A stretch of 15,016 nucleotides of DNA from a virus. Every line of letters starts with the position of its first letter. The stretch's first letter is position 1. The stretch is taken from the UHGV virus genome UHGV-0154878. One strand, 5' to 3'. Shown here one piece after another: positions 1,035 to 8,969 of this stretch. The translations under genes and the position numbers were made by a program. The notes beneath the pieces were generated by a model, which saw only the letters and a program-made list of their open reading frames with translations, ran no database searches and was not told the origin of the DNA.

Positions 1035-1229
1035 ATGATTCGAATGACACTTGCCGATTACGCCAAAATCCATGGACAGGCTAAAGCAGCCAGTGACTTT
1101 GGTGTAATCCAGTGCGCTATCAGCAAGGCCATTCTGGCAGGCCGTAACATCATGGTTACGGTAAAGCCTGATGGCAGTGTGATTGGAGAGGAAGTTCGTC
1201 CTTTCCCAAGCAACAAGAAAAACAAATAG
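1035..1229 (+). CDS. cro: Cro-type repressor
   Basis: The 64-aa product [62 protein letters not shown] aligns with lambda Cro ([21 protein letters not shown]...PFPSNKK). GGAG lies 7 nt upstream of ATG 1035. The track's GTG at 1029 is an alternative start. Confidence 0.85.
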
Positions 1230-1235
1230 TAACAC

Positions 1236-1305
1236 CGCTCTTTAACAGTCATGGTCCTCATTCCCGCCGAAATGCGGGAATACAACGCGCATAAGTTGAT
1301 GCGCA
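1236..1305 (+). promoter_or_regulatory. nutR-like site (boxA plus boxB-like hairpin) followed by a tR1-like hairpin
   Basis: CGCTCTTTAACA at 1236-1247 matches the boxA consensus. A perfect 7-bp stem hairpin TTCCCGC-cgaaat-GCGGGAA follows at 1261-1280. A second hairpin GCGCAT-aagttg-ATGCGC at 1287-1304 precedes a T-rich tract. The location between cro and cII matches lambda nutR/tR1. Confidence 0.45.
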
Positions 1306-1337
1306 TAACTTCTTATTTGTTAAGGAAATACTTACAT

Positions 1338-1616
1338 ATGCAACTTACAAGTACTCGCAAGAAAGCGAATGCAATTACAAGCAACATCCTGAATCGAATT
1401 GCTGTACGTGGTCAGCGAAAGGTTGCCGACGCGTTAGGGATTAATGAATCGCAAATTTCGCGATGGAAAGACAGCTTCATCCCAAAAATGGGAATGCTTC
1501 TGGCTGTGCTGGAGTGGGGTGTTGAAGACGAGGAATTAGCGGAGCTGGCAAAGAAAGTAGCCATGGTGCTGACAAAAGAAAAGCCTCAAGACTGCTGCAA
1601 CAGTTTTGAGGCCTGA
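1338..1616 (+). CDS. cII: CII-type transcriptional activator
   Basis: The C-terminal part aligns with lambda CII ([42 protein letters not shown]). I place the start at ATG 1338 with AAGGA about 11 nt upstream; the track ORF begins at 1251. Confidence 0.8.
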
Positions 1617-1797: not shown

Positions 1798-2689
1798 CAT
1801 ATCTAATCTAGCCGAAGCCAGAGAGGCCAGAAGGCTACAACAACCGCATCAAAGCAGCGGTAAGGGGTATGCCTTGCTGCACCGTAAAATTATGGATGTG
1901 CCGTTTTACAAGGACGCAGAAGCTGCGCATCTGTGGGTTCACTTAATCCTCAAAGCAAAGCATACGCCTGAGTATGTAATGACTGACGCAGGAGAAATTC
2001 TGGTAGGCAGAGGGAAGCTACTTGGCGGTAGAAACTCTCTGGCGTTTGAAACAGGACTCAAACCAGATCGCGTTCAGTACCTGCTTAGAAAGTTCAAAAA
2101 ACTCGGCATGATTGACTGGGTTTCACACGGTAAATTCTCAGTTTTCTCGGTAGAGAAATATGACGATTATCAGTCAAATTTTGTACCAGCAGATTACCAG
2201 CAAATTACCACCTCAAAGCCAGCAATACCAATGCCTGCAAGCAATACTGTACCAGCAGATTACCAGCAAATTACCACAGATAAAGAATATAATAATATTA
2301 TCTCTAATACTGACGTATTAGAGAGTACCGTAGCAGACAAAAAGTCTGACAAGAAAAAACCTTCCGTCAGCTGTCAGGATGTTGTCGATGCTTACCACGA
2401 AATCCTTCCTGAAGCGCCAAGAATCCGCGCACTGAATGACAAGCGTAAAAACCAGATCCGAACGTTCTGGCGCAAAGCCGGAGTGATAACCCGCCAGCTT
2501 GACGGGCATGGGTTCACGATGCAGGACTGGAGAAATTATTTGAGCTACGTTGGCGAAAATTGCCGATGGATGTTCGAAGAGCGCCCAAACCATCAACGCG
2601 GAACCGTCTGGCACAAAAAGGGATTTGATTTCCTGCTTAACGATAATACCTACCTGAAAGTTCGTGAGGGTGAACACGATGACCGATAA
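1790..2689 (+). CDS. Replication initiation protein, lambda O / P22 gp18-like, with the origin embedded in the coding sequence
   Basis: Strong AAGGAGAAAGG Shine-Dalgarno. It sits immediately after cII and before a DnaB-family helicase. Direct DNA repeats (iterons) plus an AT-rich tract lie inside the gene and produce the duplicated peptide [10 protein letters not shown]. Confidence 0.75.
2182..2310 (+). repeat. Candidate origin of replication: iterons (two copies of a 30-bp unit, each containing ACCAGCARATT sub-repeats) followed by an AT-rich tract
   Basis: TGTACCAGCAGATTACCAGCAAATTACCAC occurs at 2182-2211 and again at 2248-2277, 66 bp apart. The AT-rich AGATAAAGAATATAATAATATTATCTCTAATACTG follows at 2278-2310. 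This is the same architecture as ori-lambda inside gene O. Confidence 0.65.
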
Positions 2690-4115
2690 TTTTTATGCGC
2701 CGCCCCATAGCATCGAGGCAGAGCAGGCGGTGATTGGTGGATTGCTTCTGGATGATGACAGCAGTGAGCGCGTCCAGAAAGTTCTGGCGATGCTGAAGCC
2801 TGATTCATTTTACAGCCGACCACACAAAATCCTTTTCGAAGAAATAACCAGAATGCACCGGGAGCAAAAGCCAGTAGATGGCCTGACGCTTTTCGATGAA
2901 CTGGAGCGTAAATCGTTAACGGCGTCTGTTGGCGGTTTTGCTTATATCGCTGAGATCGCAAAGAACACGCCAAGCGCAGCAAACATCGTTGCCTATGCAA
3001 TGCAGGTTCGTGAAACCGCAATGGAACGCTACGCCATCAACCGCATGACTGAAGCGACGGAATTGCTCTATTCCCGCAACGGAATGACTGCAACGCAGAA
3101 GTACGAAGCTATTCAGGCGATTTTCACGCAACTGACAGACCATGCAAAAACCGGATCGCGTCGCGGCCTTCGCTCATTTGGTGAGGTCATGGAAGACTGG
3201 GTTAGCGACCTTGAGAAGCGATTTGACCCGTCAGGCGAACAACGAGGAATGAGCACAGGGATCCCATCGCTGGACAGGATGCTGTCACCGAAAGGTCTGG
3301 TGAAAGGCTCTCTGTTTGTCATTGGCGCTCGCCCTAAGATGGGGAAAACGACGCTATACAGCCAGATGGCAATCAACTGCGCAGTGCATGAGAAAAAGCC
3401 CGCTCTGATGTTCAGCCTTGAAATGCCAGGTGATCAGATACTGGAAAAACTGGTAGGGCAGAAGTCTGGTGTTAACCCGAATATTTTTTACCTTCCGGCG
3501 ACAAATGACGCTGATGACGGCTATCAGGGTGATTACGATGGTGACTTCAACAGGGCGATCGAAACAGCCAATCGCTTGAGTGAAATCGACCTGCTTTACA
3601 TCGACGACACGCCGGGATTATCTCTGGCTCAAATCGTCAGCGAAAGCCGTCGAATCAAGCGAGAAAAAGGATGTGTTGGCATGATTCTGGTCGATTACCT
3701 GACACTAATGACCGCTGAGAAGGCCGATCGCAACGACCTTGCTTACGGCATGATCACCAAAGGACTGAAGAACCTTGCCAAAGAGCTTGATTGCGTTGTT
3801 GTGCTTCTGACACAGCTTAACCGCGCACTGGAAAGCCGAACCAATAAACGCCCATTACCAAGTGACTCGCGAGATACAGGGCAGATTGAACAGGATTGCG
3901 ATTATTGGGTCGGGATCCATCGTGAAGGTGCTTTTGATGACAGCGTTCCTCCTGGTGAAACCGAACTAATCCTTCGTCTCAATCGTCATGGCAATACCGG
4001 CACGGTGTATTGCATTCAGGCAAATGGCGCTATTTATGACACAGACCAACAGTCTGCTGAAATGCGCCGACGTGAACGCGAGGAACCGCAGTCCAAGAAG
4101 AAAGGAGGATTCTGA
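2679..4115 (+). CDS. Replicative DNA helicase, DnaB family (P22 gp12-like)
   Basis: DnaB N-terminal domain (SIEAEQAVIGGLLLD...). Walker A GARPKMGKTT. RecA-like C-terminal region. GAGGG Shine-Dalgarno before ATG 2679, which overlaps the upstream stop. Confidence 0.9.
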   Translation: MTDNFYAPPHSIEAEQAVIGGLLLDDDSSERVQKVLAMLKPDSFYSRPHKILFEEITRMHREQKPVDGLTLFDELERKSLTASVGGFAYIAEIAKNTPSAANIVAYAMQVRETAMERYAINRMTEATELLYSRNGMTATQKYEAIQAIFTQLTDHAKTGSRRGLRSFGEVMEDWVSDLEKRFDPSGEQRGMSTGIPSLDRMLSPKGLVKGSLFVIGARPKMGKTTLYSQMAINCAVHEKKPALMFSLEMPGDQILEKLVGQKSGVNPNIFYLPATNDADDGYQGDYDGDFNRAIETANRLSEIDLLYIDDTPGLSLAQIVSESRRIKREKGCVGMILVDYLTLMTAEKADRNDLAYGMITKGLKNLAKELDCVVVLLTQLNRALESRTNKRPLPSDSRDTGQIEQDCDYWVGIHREGAFDDSVPPGETELILRLNRHGNTGTVYCIQANGAIYDTDQQSAEMRRREREEPQSKKKGGF

Positions 4116-4384
4116 TGAATAAAAAACAATTAGCCATTCTCGAAAAGGCATGGGATGCGCAAATATCATACGCTTTGAAAGAACAGGCACTACCAATAAT
4201 CCAGACCAAATCGAAAATAGCCAGGCAGTTATGCGATGGCGGATTCCTGAACGAAGTTGAGATTACGCGCCAGATGGTAACGTTCAAAGGGTATGAGATA
4301 AATCATCATGGTATAGCGGCGTATTGCTCCCATCTTCCTGATGACGTTGACATTGATGAAGTGGAAAGGGAGATGAAGCAATGA
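4115..4384 (+). CDS. Hypothetical protein (89 aa) in the ren position
   Basis: ATGA overlap with the helicase stop suggests translational coupling. No recognisable motif. Confidence 0.5.
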   Translation: MNKKQLAILEKAWDAQISYALKEQALPIIQTKSKIARQLCDGGFLNEVEITRQMVTFKGYEINHHGIAAYCSHLPDDVDIDEVEREMKQ

Positions 4385-4409
4385 CCATCTACATCACTGA
4401 GTTAATAAC

Positions 4410-4441
4410 AGGCCTGCTGGTAATCGCAGGCCTTTTTATTT
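4410..4441 (+). terminator. Intrinsic terminator (tR2-like)
   Basis: Perfect 8-bp GC-rich stem AGGCCTGC-tggtaatc-GCAGGCCT followed by TTTTTATTT, located where lambda carries tR2 between the replication and nin genes. Confidence 0.7.
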
Positions 4442-4456
4442 GGGGGAGAGGGAAGT

Positions 4457-4783
4457 GTGGCTGACTGGCAAATTCCAATCATCATTCTTGCCGGAGCTTC
4501 GCTGGTTGCTGGCTTTATCCTGCTGAAGAAGCATAAAGACCGTGATCAAAAAGTCGAAGTTCTCTATGGGTATCCAGCGAACTGCACAACATGGCTGACC
4601 ATTTACCACTACCGAAAATCAGGCCGTTGGGTATTCGAATGGGATGATCTGTTTGCTGAAAAGCGACCAAAGTCATGGGGAGACATCAGCGAATGCATGA
4701 TGTTTGAAGAAAGAAAATCCGGCGCAACTCGAGAAGAGTTTAACGAAGCGTGGAGGCGATTAAGTGAGAGAGGGTATCAATGA
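4457..4783 (+). CDS. Hypothetical protein with an N-terminal transmembrane helix (108 aa; GTG start)
   Basis: GGGAGAGGGAAG Shine-Dalgarno upstream of GTG 4457. Hydrophobic N-terminus IPIIILAGASLVAGFILL followed by a charged soluble domain. Confidence 0.55.
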   Translation: MADWQIPIIILAGASLVAGFILLKKHKDRDQKVEVLYGYPANCTTWLTIYHYRKSGRWVFEWDDLFAEKRPKSWGDISECMMFEERKSGATREEFNEAWRRLSERGYQ

Positions 4784-4805: not shown

Positions 4806-5252
4806 ATGAGGCAAATATACATGCTTCGCAACGAAGCAATCAGAAACAACGCCATAGACGCAATACACTCACTTCCGATCGACGACAAGTCACCCCACGA
4901 AGTCCACATTAAAGAACCAAAGCGGAGCAATCCTCAAAACCGCCTTATGTGGGCGTTATTGCAGGACGTATCGCGTCAGGTGCTCTGGCATGGAGAGAGA
5001 CTTGCGCCGGAGGACTGGAAAGATCTGTTCACTGCCCTGTGGCTTAAGACCAAAAAACTGGAGCAACGAAGTGCGCCTGGTATCGACGGTGGCGTTGTTA
5101 TGCTTGGCGTGCGTACCAGCAAAATGCGAAAGGCCAGCATGACTGAGCTTATCGAAATCATGTTCTGGTTCGGCTCAGAGCGCAACGTGCGGTGGAGTGA
5201 TGACTCCCGGCGAGAGTATGAATGGTCACAACGAAAAGGGAAGGCTGCATGA
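4806..5252 (+). CDS. ninB: NinB/Orf-family recombination protein
   Basis: Resembles lambda NinB (QNRxLWAxLxDVSRQVxWHG...WKxxFTA...RxVRWSD). ATG 4821 is an alternative start. Confidence 0.75.
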   Translation: MRQIYMLRNEAIRNNAIDAIHSLPIDDKSPHEVHIKEPKRSNPQNRLMWALLQDVSRQVLWHGERLAPEDWKDLFTALWLKTKKLEQRSAPGIDGGVVMLGVRTSKMRKASMTELIEIMFWFGSERNVRWSDDSRREYEWSQRKGKAA

Positions 5253-5776
5253 CTATCAAATCAAATACGCCAGCACACGACAAGGACTGCTGGCAAACGC
5301 CGCTCTGGCTTTTTGATGCGCTGGATATTGAGTTTGGATTCTGGCTGGATTCAGCTGCGAGCGACAAAAACGCTCTGTGCGCTCACTGGCTAACTGAGGC
5401 TGACGACGCGCTAAATTCTGAGTGGATAAGCCACGGTGCAATCTGGAATAACCCACCGTACAGCAATATCAGGCCGTGGGTGGAAAAAGCCGCTGAGCAG
5501 TGCATACAACAGCGACAGACGGTAGTGATGCTTGTGCCAGAGGATATGTCAGTCGGATGGTTCAGCAAGGCTCTGGAGAGTGTCGACGAAGTTCGCATTA
5601 TCACTGATGGACGGATTAATTTTATCGAACCATCGACAGGGCTGGAGAAGAAGGGAAACAGCAAAGGCTCCATGCTGCTGATTTGGCGACCGTTCATCAG
5701 TCCTCGACGGATGTTTACTACCGTATCCAAAGCGGCATTGATGGCGATCGGGCAGGGCGTCAGGAGGGCGGCATGA
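5249..5776 (+). CDS. Phage Dam-family DNA N6-adenine methyltransferase (orphan)
   Basis: Motifs DxWQTPxWLFDALDxEFGF and NPPYS (the catalytic D/N-PP-Y/F motif). ATGA overlap with the ninB stop. No adjacent restriction endonuclease. Confidence 0.8.
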
Positions 5777-7486: not shown

Positions 7487-7671
7487 ACGCCACAATTCAA
7501 ACGATACCAGAGCTTCTTATCCAGACACGAGGCAATCAGACCGAAGTGGCGAGGATGCTTTCCTGCGCAAGAGGAACAGTGCTCAAGTACAACCGAGACA
7601 GCAAAGGCGAGCGTCACGTAATAGTTAACGGCGTCCTGATGGTCAAACAGGGCAAGAGGGGAAGACGATGA
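7483..7671 (+). CDS. ninH: NinH-like protein
   Basis: TIPExLxxxxGNQTEVARxLxCxRGTVxKYxxDxxGxxHxIVNxVLMV matches lambda NinH. Confidence 0.75.
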   Translation: MNATIQTIPELLIQTRGNQTEVARMLSCARGTVLKYNRDSKGERHVIVNGVLMVKQGKRGRR

Positions 7672-8156
7672 GCATAAGAGAACTAAACCTCACCAAAGAG
7701 CAGCACGAGTGGCTGAATGGCTGGCTTGAACTGTGGGGCGCATGGGTTTATTCAGGTCGTCTGGAAAAGCGCATGAGCAGCGTAATAGCGAAGTTCATGG
7801 AGAGCGTAGAGCCGGGAAGAGTTATGACAAGGCCAATGTGCAATGATGATGATGGAATGTTGATTTCTCAGGTCGTCGATTCCGTCATGTACATTGACAA
7901 GAAAGCCTTTGGCATCCTCCTCAGCTACTACGCTCATGGATCTTCCAAGCATGCCATTGCATCTTACTATCATCGCGTCGCAAGACCTCGCAAGATGTTA
8001 TGCCGGGGCGGCGGGCGTATTCAAAAACCATCGCTCGCAACCTGTCGCCGGGAAGTTGACGAAATCCTCAATGCTTCGTTGTTTATGATTTACCCGGTTC
8101 TGGATAGTGCGTTTAAAAACCGGAAACGTGTAGAGAAAATTAAACATGTAGCATAG
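7668..8156 (+). CDS. Q: Late-gene antitermination protein Q (QuuD/Q82-like family)
   Basis: Motifs LELWGAWV and RPMCNDDDGMLI resemble QuuD-type Q proteins. It is the last gene of the nin region and sits immediately upstream of a promoter-like element, tRNA genes and the lysis cassette. Confidence 0.8.
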   Translation: MSIRELNLTKEQHEWLNGWLELWGAWVYSGRLEKRMSSVIAKFMESVEPGRVMTRPMCNDDDGMLISQVVDSVMYIDKKAFGILLSYYAHGSSKHAIASYYHRVARPRKMLCRGGGRIQKPSLATCRREVDEILNASLFMIYPVLDSAFKNRKRVEKIKHVA

Positions 8157-8247: not shown

Positions 8248-8322
8248 GGGTCAGTCGTATAAAGGTCATTACGGAAGGCTGTTAACCTTCTTATCGTGGT
8301 TCGAGTCCACGCTGTCCCGCCA
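8248..8322 (+). tRNA. tRNA with anticodon GTT (Asn), non-canonical (one acceptor-stem mismatch, short D-stem)
   Basis: Hand-folded cloverleaf. Anticodon arm GAAGG-cTGTTaa-CCTTC. T-arm CGTGG-TTCGAGT-CCACG. Acceptor GGGTCAG/CTGTCCC has a T-T mismatch at position 4:69. Discriminator G, then encoded CCA. Confidence 0.6.
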
Positions 8323-8327
8323 AATAT

Positions 8328-8403
8328 GCTGGTTTAGCTCCAATGGTAGAGCGGTCGCCTTGTAAGCGAATGGGTAGCGGTTCAAGTCCGTTAACCAGCA
8401 CCA
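8328..8403 (+). tRNA. tRNA with anticodon TGT (Thr)
   Basis: Perfect 7-bp acceptor stem GCTGGTT/AACCAGC. D-arm GCTC-caatGGta-GAGC. Anticodon loop cTTGTaa. T-arm AGCGG-TTCAAGT-CCGTT. Discriminator A, then encoded CCA. Confidence 0.75.
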
Positions 8404-8645: not shown

Positions 8646-8969
8646 ATGAAGATGCCAGAAAAACATGACCTGTTAGCCGCCATTCTCGCGGCAAAGGAAC
8701 AAGGCATCGGGGCAATCCTTGCGTTTGCAATGGCGTACCTTCGCGGCAGATATAATGGCGGTGCGTTTACAAAAACAGTAATCGACGCAACGATGTGCGC
8801 CATTATCGCCTGGTTCATTCGTGACCTTCTCGACTTCGCCGGACTAAGTAGCAATCTCGCTTATATAACGAGCGTGTTCATCGGCTACATCGGTACTGAC
8901 TCGATTGGTTCGCTTATCAAACGCTTCGCTGCTAAAAAAGCCGGAGTAGAAGATGGTGGAAATCAATAA
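8646..8969 (+). CDS. S: Class I holin, lambda S type, with dual-start motif (Met1-Lys2-Met3)
   Basis: The 107-aa product is almost identical to lambda S as I recall it ([39 protein letters not shown]...). The MKM N-terminus corresponds to the S107 antiholin and S105 holin starts. Confidence 0.95.

Follow-up and report, generated by a model that had tools for sequence, protein, structure and literature searches.

The ninA-tR2 junction of an HK620-like lambdoid early-right operon as a probable meeting point of two independent accessory genes

Introduction

In the virus genome UHGV-0154878, two open reading frames (ORFs) of 89 and 108 amino acids (aa) are located between the gene of a replicative helicase and ninB, and an intrinsic terminator separates them. 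Do the two ORFs form an accessory cassette with a regulatory element inside, or do they meet at a junction that is a regular part of a lambdoid operon? The original prediction, made from a stretch of 15,016 nucleotides (nt) of this genome (hereafter "the window"), proposed a cassette in the position of lambda ren and took a 27-codon micro-ORF overlapping the terminator for more likely spurious. We checked the features of the window against the ORF list, the raw sequence and a terminator scan. With a probability of roughly 0.85, the region represents the ren/ninA-tR2 junction in the early-right (pR) operon of an HK620-like lambdoid phage, and the ORFs on its two flanks are independent accessory genes. 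In the following, we describe the terminator, the conserved DNA around it and the micro-ORF ninA, outline how the junction may work and discuss the two flanking proteins along with the alternative explanations.

A lambdoid junction between replication and nin genes

The two ORFs, the micro-ORF and the hairpin with its T-run are all present between helicase and ninB, where they had been predicted. The features of the junction and its operon are:

2664-4115 (+): DnaB-type replicative helicase of 483 aa (lambdoid "P", HK022/HK620 type), the final gene of the replication module; Pfam DnaB_C 3e-60, DnaB 3.5e-31
4115-4384 (+): acidic 89-aa protein with a predicted winged helix, phrog_2239 (PHROG match 5.5e-62), corresponding to VT2-Sakai orf28; in lambda's ren slot, upstream of tR2
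4381-4464 (+): ninA micro-ORF of 27 codons, MTIYITELITGLLVIAGLFIWGRGKCG; phrog_5907 (1.8e-19) and annotation in HK620/Sf6
4381-4456 (+): conserved 76-bp "boundary sequence" (Sf6 bsq6), apparent exchange junction of mosaic modules; 74/76 positions as in lambda, flanks different
4410-4443 (+): intrinsic terminator tR2, with the hairpin at 4410-4433 and the T-tract at 4434-4443; terminator scan, fold and identity to lambda
4457-4783 (+): 108-aa protein with a predicted single membrane anchor, phrog_5903 (PHROG match 3.8e-75), corresponding to Sf6 gene 46 and Oslo gp62; first gene past tR2
4806-5252 (+): ninB (Orf-family recombination mediator); Pfam NinB 2.1e-48
1236-1287 (+): nutR and tR1 of the early-right operon; window 1215-1345 is identical (131/131) to the HK620 stretch in which nutR and tR1 are annotated

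The operon context is lambdoid throughout, as the window encodes cI, O, the DnaB-type helicase (annotated P in HK620 and VT2-Sakai), ninB, Dam, NinE, NinF, Roi/Ant, YbcO, RusA and Q. The closest overall relative is HK620, which covers 46% of the window at 97.6% identity. All three ORFs of the junction match their PHROG families end to end, although these families are all of unknown function, and 406 phage records contain pieces of the region, as do 2006 of 5426 complete E. coli genomes. Owing to these matches and to the recurrence of the region, the ORFs are features beyond chance.

The terminator corresponds to lambda tR2

The hairpin comprises an 8-bp stem with six G-C pairs, followed by TTTTTATTTG, and takes second rank among the sites that the terminator scan found in the window. 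Its energies amount to -15.7 kcal/mol (centroid of the hairpin only) and -17.6 kcal/mol (minimum free energy of a 56-nt stretch). The scan yields a total of 20 terminator-like sites over the window, which is not above the 16.7 expected from shuffled sequence. Since the scan alone is no proof, the case for a terminator rests on the identity to lambda tR2: hairpin and T-tract are the same as in lambda (40597-40618 and flanks), and so is the position in the operon, with replication genes before and ninB after. Furthermore, tR2 is annotated in HK620, and the Sf6 record carries the label "terminator; homology to phage lambda; tR2". The slot had been likened to that of lambda ren and tR2; the position is indeed the same, and hairpin and T-tract are those of tR2 itself.

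Six sequence-divergent variants of the hairpin all retain a stem of 8-11 bp followed by a T-tract, with energies of -12.5 to -17.4 kcal/mol and z-scores of -2.4 to -4.9. One lineage shows a compensatory series at a single base pair, from U-A to U-G to C-G (GGGCUAUU...AGUAGCCC, GGGCUACU...AGUGGCCC and GGCCACU...AGUGGCC). As judged from these sequence variants, tR2 appears to be under structural selection.

Lambda tR2 has an in vivo efficiency of ~0.9, and with its natural upstream sequence ~0.8 is reached already at 18 nt from the preceding stop codon (PMC4824070). In the window, the stop codon of the 89-aa ORF ends 25 nt ahead of the hairpin, and because of this distance near-maximal termination would be expected for unmodified polymerase. 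An A-rich run 5' of the hairpin, TAATAACA, is predicted to base-pair with the T-tract (window 4400-4445), which renders the terminator nearly symmetrical; tR2 might also be active on the minus strand.

A 76-bp boundary sequence with unrelated flanks

The terminator is embedded in a short stretch of nearly invariant DNA. From the ninA ATG to GGGAAGT, 74 of 76 bp are identical to lambda, and in a five-way alignment of the window with lambda, Sf6, Oslo and VT2-Sakai the 76 bp are invariant save for two sites, while both flanks are unrelated. The Sf6 record annotates the ninA span as "bsq6; boundary sequence". In megablast searches against phage records the region was never matched as one piece, and the joints fall at the edges of ninA. 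The left match, from 4000 to 4457-4464, belongs to Shiga toxin (Stx)-converting phages (among them VT2-Sakai, phage 86 and CP-1639), the right match, from 4379-4380 to 4900, to Salmonella phage Oslo, and Shigella phage Sf6 matches the region in two pieces. The stretch thus has the hallmarks of a boundary sequence, i.e., it is short, conserved, flanked by unrelated genes and situated at mosaic joints.

To obtain a broader sample, viral contigs were scanned with a degenerate pattern over ninA codons 4-11; together with the loci already fetched, this gave 122 elements with an ATGA start. The genes on either side were sorted into five upstream and 15 downstream classes, which occur in 32 pairings including edge cases. 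The upstream classes and the four largest downstream classes are:

Upstream, DnaB-type helicase: 61 elements
Upstream, Ren: 33 elements
Upstream, Oslo-type primase-helicase: 13 elements
Upstream, 89-aa protein: 9 elements
Upstream, other: 5 elements
Downstream, NinB: 47 elements
Downstream, 68-aa two-helix membrane protein: 26 elements
Downstream, 108-aa protein: 13 elements
Downstream, VT2-Sakai orf29 type: 7 elements

The 108-aa gene is preceded by the helicase (6 elements), the primase-helicase (3), the 89-aa gene (2), Ren (1) or another gene (1), and genes of six different downstream classes come after the 89-aa gene. The pairing of the two genes is found in 2 of the 122 sampled elements, one of which is the window; at no less than 80% query coverage, the exact combination occurs in no phage record and in one of the 5426 E. 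coli genomes. The term "cassette" therefore does not apply: a recombination boundary separates the ORFs, and each is inherited independently of the other. The class pattern fits the boundary-sequence model of lambdoid mosaicism, according to which homologous recombination takes place at short conserved sequences between modules (PMC3233612). Window and Sf6 are identical through ...GGAGGATTCTGATGA; thereafter the 89-aa ORF begins in the window and ninA in Sf6, as if the 89-aa gene had been inserted with gene precision right after the helicase stop and ahead of the ninA ATG.

Among the various genes found directly after ninA, many open with a hydrophobic, transmembrane-like segment (loci L015, L010, L035, L077 and others). 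Examples are the 68-aa two-helix protein (26 elements), the 108-aa protein and a 50-aa protein in loci L010-L012, and the first position past tR2 seems to be enriched for small membrane proteins.

The micro-ORF ninA

The micro-ORF is linked to both of its neighbours. Its ATG overlaps the stop codon of the 89-aa ORF (ATGA, 4381-4384), and its own stop overlaps the region of the GTG start (4457) of the 108-aa ORF. The phrog_5907 match spans residues 1-26 of 27, and 25 of 26 codons match lambda NinA, only the C-terminal end being different (KCG here, KS in lambda). NinA of Sf6 and HK620, too, is identical up to this end. The same element is annotated as ninA in HK620, with tR2 inside and directly after the helicase gene P, and as the 84-bp gene 45 in Sf6 ("similar to phage 21 NinA"), again with tR2 inside. 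HK620, Sf6 and P22 thus share with the window the placement of ninA-tR2 between replication and nin genes as well as the ATGA coupling, and nutR and tR1 are as in HK620. The difference is that ninA directly follows the helicase gene in HK620 and Sf6, whereas in the window the 89-aa gene lies between. Lambda has the same ORF between ren and ninB, overlapping each of these neighbours by an ATGA; it is not annotated in the RefSeq record. Published work counts ninA as a nin gene in both lambda and P22 and also describes how the region is chained by ATGA overlaps (PMC8022706).

Among the 122 elements, the length of the ORF is 24-32 codons in 119; two of the remainder contain premature stops, and a third runs on into an open frame of 109 codons. 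The stop of the upstream gene overlaps or abuts the ninA ATG in 121 elements (79 with the stop beginning at +1, 29 at -2 and 13 at -3), and the inferred start of the downstream gene falls into the final 20 nt of ninA in 110. The final two or three codons of ninA vary with the identity of the following gene. The reading frame is kept in all six hairpin variants and the ATGA start in five of them. In the lambda-type group, the variant alleles are synonymous in nine and non-synonymous in nine cases with respect to the ninA frame, where 26% synonymous changes are expected (binomial p = 0.027), and codon 8 is represented by five different Leu codons. The other two frames show 5/15 and 3/16 synonymous changes, so that the enrichment is confined to the ninA frame.

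Experimental support comes from lambda. In the work of Li et al., a reporter with 48 bp of natural sequence upstream of tR2 revealed an active NinA initiation site; the output was halved by ribosomes running onto terminated, non-stop mRNA, and mutation of the ribosome-binding site (RBS) or of the AUG restored it (PMC4824070). Translation of NinA lowers termination at tR2 by only ~10% in lambda (PMC4824070). We take ninA to be a translated ORF that serves to couple its neighbours; for the phage of the window, translation would follow by analogy to lambda. The micro-ORF is thus probably not spurious, contrary to what had been assumed: it is annotated as ninA in HK620, Sf6 and P22, it is coupled at both ends, and its start is active in lambda.

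The most serious alternative, which we regard as unlikely but by no means negligible, holds that ninA is not a gene proper, its open frame being a by-product of a conserved terminator and a DNA boundary sequence, and that the peptide has no function. The element is near-invariant at the level of DNA, and selection on the protein is accordingly hard to demonstrate. The T-rich second codon positions contributed by stem and T-tract automatically yield hydrophobic residues, and the part of the peptide encoded by the hairpin varies freely among the variants (GLLVIAGLFIW, GAIYTVALFYW and GLSVTVAFFIC). The lack of an annotation in RefSeq lambda and the few interrupted or extended frames point in the same direction. 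A mere by-product, however, does not readily account for the conservation of frame, ATG and length in 119 elements and across six hairpin variants, for the almost universal coupling to the upstream stop and the downstream start, or for a synonymous enrichment restricted to the ninA frame (9/18). Moreover, since mutation of the RBS or the AUG of lambda NinA alters the reporter output, ribosomes do initiate there (PMC4824070).

How the junction may work

Taken together with the lambda literature, these observations suggest a simple scheme. RNA polymerase that starts at pR and is not modified by N at nutR would stop at tR2, while N-modified polymerase would pass tR2 and proceed into the nin genes and Q; nutR, which together with tR1 occupies 1236-1287, would be the site of the modification that allows read-through. 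In lambda, the genes located past cro depend on antitermination by N, and the phage can dispense with the nin region (PMC10695390). By analogy, the 89-aa gene would be co-expressed with the replication genes because it lies upstream of tR2, and the 108-aa gene would be an N-dependent delayed-early gene because it lies downstream. ninA would chain translation across the terminator: its ATG sits on the upstream stop (ATGA), and its final codons hold the Shine-Dalgarno sequence GGAGAGGGAAG and overlap the next start. At the level of DNA, the shared, near-identical 76 bp may allow homologous recombination to exchange replication modules on the left and nin modules on the right. The window would join a Stx-phage-like left half to an Sf6/Oslo-like right half because of such a swap.

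Several points weigh against this account. Termination, read-through by N and translation of ninA in the phage of the window are all transferred from lambda. The RBS that precedes ninA differs from that of lambda: it is situated in the 89-aa gene, where lambda has ren. The coding signal of ninA is modest (p ~0.03), the statistical power is low with DNA this uniform, and some positions were set in advance by the search pattern. In part, the peptide is hydrophobic simply because a G+C-rich stem and the T-run behind it dictate such residues. Finally, it is the pattern of mosaic joints, not observed recombination events, that backs recombination at the boundary sequence.

The 89-aa protein in the ren slot

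The 89-aa ORF is coupled to the replication module; its ATG overlaps the helicase stop (TGATG), and AGGAGG is found 6 nt upstream. The protein has been regarded as soluble, and this holds, since there is no hydrophobic 19-residue window (maximal Kyte-Doolittle mean 0.33). It is acidic (net charge -3) with an acidic C-terminal tail. The structural model displays a winged helix-turn-helix (HTH) fold resembling MarR/PadR regulators. The predicted fold is thus like that of MarR/PadR winged-helix regulators, but the sequence profiles do not place the protein in these families: 15 members of the 89-aa family searched against Pfam, including MarR, MarR_2 and PadR, matched no HTH family at E values up to 1. 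Profile searches of the PDB with the families of the 89-aa protein, the 108-aa protein and Ren returned nothing significant, and PADLOC gave a single weak, local match for the 89-aa protein (PDC-M53A, E 0.013, 30 residues).

Homologues share 49-98% identity and stem, according to their source names, from several enterobacterial genera including Escherichia, Salmonella, Erwinia and Enterobacter. The gene is present in 115 phage records, more than half of which are named Stx-converting phages, and is termed "hypothetical" wherever a coding sequence is annotated under the match. In the diverged loci L010-L012 a primase-helicase gene is followed by genes for a 151-aa IclR-like winged-helix protein and a homologue of the 89-aa protein, and by a diverged ninA/terminator with an ATGA overlap. 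On account of this arrangement, the 89-aa gene reaches the same slot with different replication modules. Our best guess is that the 89-aa protein binds DNA or another protein, and either works with the replication module or takes part in interference involving host or prophage.

The product of lambda ren protects the phage from Rex exclusion. Both ren and the 89-aa gene occupy the slot directly after the last replication gene, are coupled to that gene and end in an ATGA shared with ninA, and their products are of similar size (96 aa for Ren). Ren itself gives sub-threshold signals for MarR_2 and HTH_Crp_2 (E 0.06-0.13), and truncated Ren homologues are called "MarR family" by NCBI. The two proteins differ in that there is no detectable sequence homology between them and in the acidic C-terminal tail of the 89-aa protein. 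Homology was rejected upon hhalign comparison, with probabilities of 0.3% (Ren alone) and 0.6% (a 14-sequence Ren profile), and both runs aligned the putative recognition helix only. We therefore treat the fold-level analogy as a lead, not as a result. The original prediction had stated that neither flanking protein resembles Ren or a named Nin product, and had called for remote-homology and structure searches. Upon these searches the statement stands: there is no match in Pfam or NCBIfam and no detectable homology to Ren or a named Nin protein, and the structures suggest a winged helix for the 89-aa and a membrane helix for the 108-aa protein.

The 108-aa protein past tR2

The 108-aa ORF begins with GTG, preceded by the Shine-Dalgarno sequence in the end of ninA. 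An N-terminal transmembrane helix had been proposed and is borne out, as residues 5-23 are hydrophobic (Kyte-Doolittle mean 2.28), and AlphaFold predicts a helix at residues 5-27, followed by KKHKDRDQK. The positive charges past the helix suggest that the domain of this putative inner-membrane protein faces the cytoplasm. The family shares the invariant motif YGYP..WLT.YH.R...FEWDDLF..RP; H51, R53, E61, D63, D64 and R70 are among the invariant residues.

Sf6 gene 46 and gp62 of Salmonella phage Oslo are 97-98% identical over the full length and occupy the same position right after ninA; there is no difference of substance. Homologues are "hypothetical" in every phage record listed. An exhaustive profile search among 1.84 billion representatives retrieved 35 cluster representatives of 73-133 aa and no fusion to a known domain. 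Structural matches in BFVD are restricted to uncharacterised proteins of jumbo phage Goslar (A0A482GDX9) and Salmonella phage IME207, and PADLOC reports no match for the 108-aa protein or NinA. The family is small, and the members located here occur in phage or prophage contexts only. Distant members are encoded after a lambda-P-type loader in prophages (L007), beside the genes of DNA polymerase A and an HNH endonuclease on a 148-kb contig (L005:4001-4312) and in virulent Salmonella Skatevirus phages, where the protein comprises 87 aa and lacks the membrane helix (L134:2962-3225). Because of these distant members, some without helix, the soluble domain is the conserved unit and the anchor is optional.

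Some database ORFs of 133-137 aa fuse NinA in frame to the 108-aa protein (P0001, P0003, P0004 and P0006; window 4434-4457). The fusion junctions are all different, fit small indels in the T-run or G-run just past the tR2 hairpin and are represented by 1-2 sequences each. A programmed frameshift from NinA into the 108-aa protein was considered and rejected, given that the indel differs from fusion to fusion and each is supported by so few sequences. We treat the fusions as assembly or homopolymer sequencing errors or as sporadic mutations, but they could be real two-helix membrane fusions.

Further alternatives

A more ambitious interpretation, to which we assign a low probability, states that the slot before ninA/tR2 may hold interchangeable small winged-helix proteins as functional analogues of Ren; candidates are Ren itself, the 89-aa protein, the 151-aa IclR-like protein and a 117-aa protein like DUF977, and each might counter a different abortive-infection or exclusion system. 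Past tR2, the 108-aa protein may be a member of a larger group of small membrane proteins that depend on N and serve exclusion or the evasion of defence. In a second, separate interpretation of this kind, ninA would be a dual-coding element, with a function also for the 27-aa membrane peptide itself.

Slightly less probable still is a translation-controlled attenuator made up of ninA and tR2, in which a ribosome trailing the polymerase masks the 5' arm of the hairpin and thereby sets N-independent read-through. The layout is that of a leader peptide and a terminator, the upstream stop lies at a fixed 25 nt before the hairpin, and the efficiency of tR2 is sensitive to the ribosome distance below ~30 nt (PMC4824070). 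Rfam returned a Trp_leader match at window 4333-4439 (+). This match scores 21.3 bits where the gathering threshold is 41 (E = 0.13), i.e., it is at chance level, and nothing in the region lies above threshold; it reflects the layout of a micro-ORF plus terminator, not family membership. Leader-peptide attenuators such as trp or pyrBI likewise feature a short translated ORF over an intrinsic terminator; the ninA/tR2 element, by contrast, folds into the terminator hairpin only, without an alternative antiterminator pairing, and NinA contains no runs of regulatory codons. Moreover, the effect of NinA translation on lambda tR2 is small, and the efficiency with the natural upstream sequence is already high at 18 nt.

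The cassette of the original prediction, in which the 89-aa and 108-aa ORFs would together serve anti-defence or superinfection exclusion in a ren-like manner under the control of the internal terminator, is the least likely explanation: the slot is indeed the hypervariable ren position (15 downstream gene classes), many downstream genes start with a hydrophobic stretch, which would suit a membrane role, for instance in exclusion, and both proteins are uncharacterised, with the located homologues in phage or prophage contexts, but the two ORFs are rarely paired and have many other partners each, the terminator is the operon-level tR2 common to phages that do not carry both ORFs (among them lambda, HK620 and Sf6), and neither PADLOC nor Pfam lends support.

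Other features of the window

Two further loci are worth recording:

5222-5776 (+): Dam-type N6-adenine DNA methyltransferase gene (Pfam Dam 9.9e-65), overlapping the 3' end of ninB by 31 nt
8248-8322 (+): tRNA-Asn (GTT)
8328-8403 (+): tRNA-Thr (TGT)

In Oslo and VT2-Sakai, a DNA methyltransferase gene likewise overlaps the 3' end of ninB. The tRNA pair lies between the gene of the Q antiterminator (7668-8156) and a holin-like ORF (8646-8969), which corresponds to the late-promoter-proximal moron slot.

Conclusions

A tR2 terminator inside ninA is textbook lambda biology, has been annotated for more than 20 years and as such is nothing new. The value of the analysis is in part corrective: the "spurious" micro-ORF is an annotated, apparently translated linker gene, and the "cassette" consists of two unrelated accessory genes that meet at a recombination boundary. 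Beyond this, a quantitative picture emerges of a 76-bp universal module adaptor, which combines stop/start overlap, spacer, terminator and the Shine-Dalgarno sequence of the next gene. The proteins encoded on either side are widespread and uncharacterised, the domain of the 108-aa protein extends to virulent and jumbo phages, and both are reasonable candidates for accessory-gene screens.

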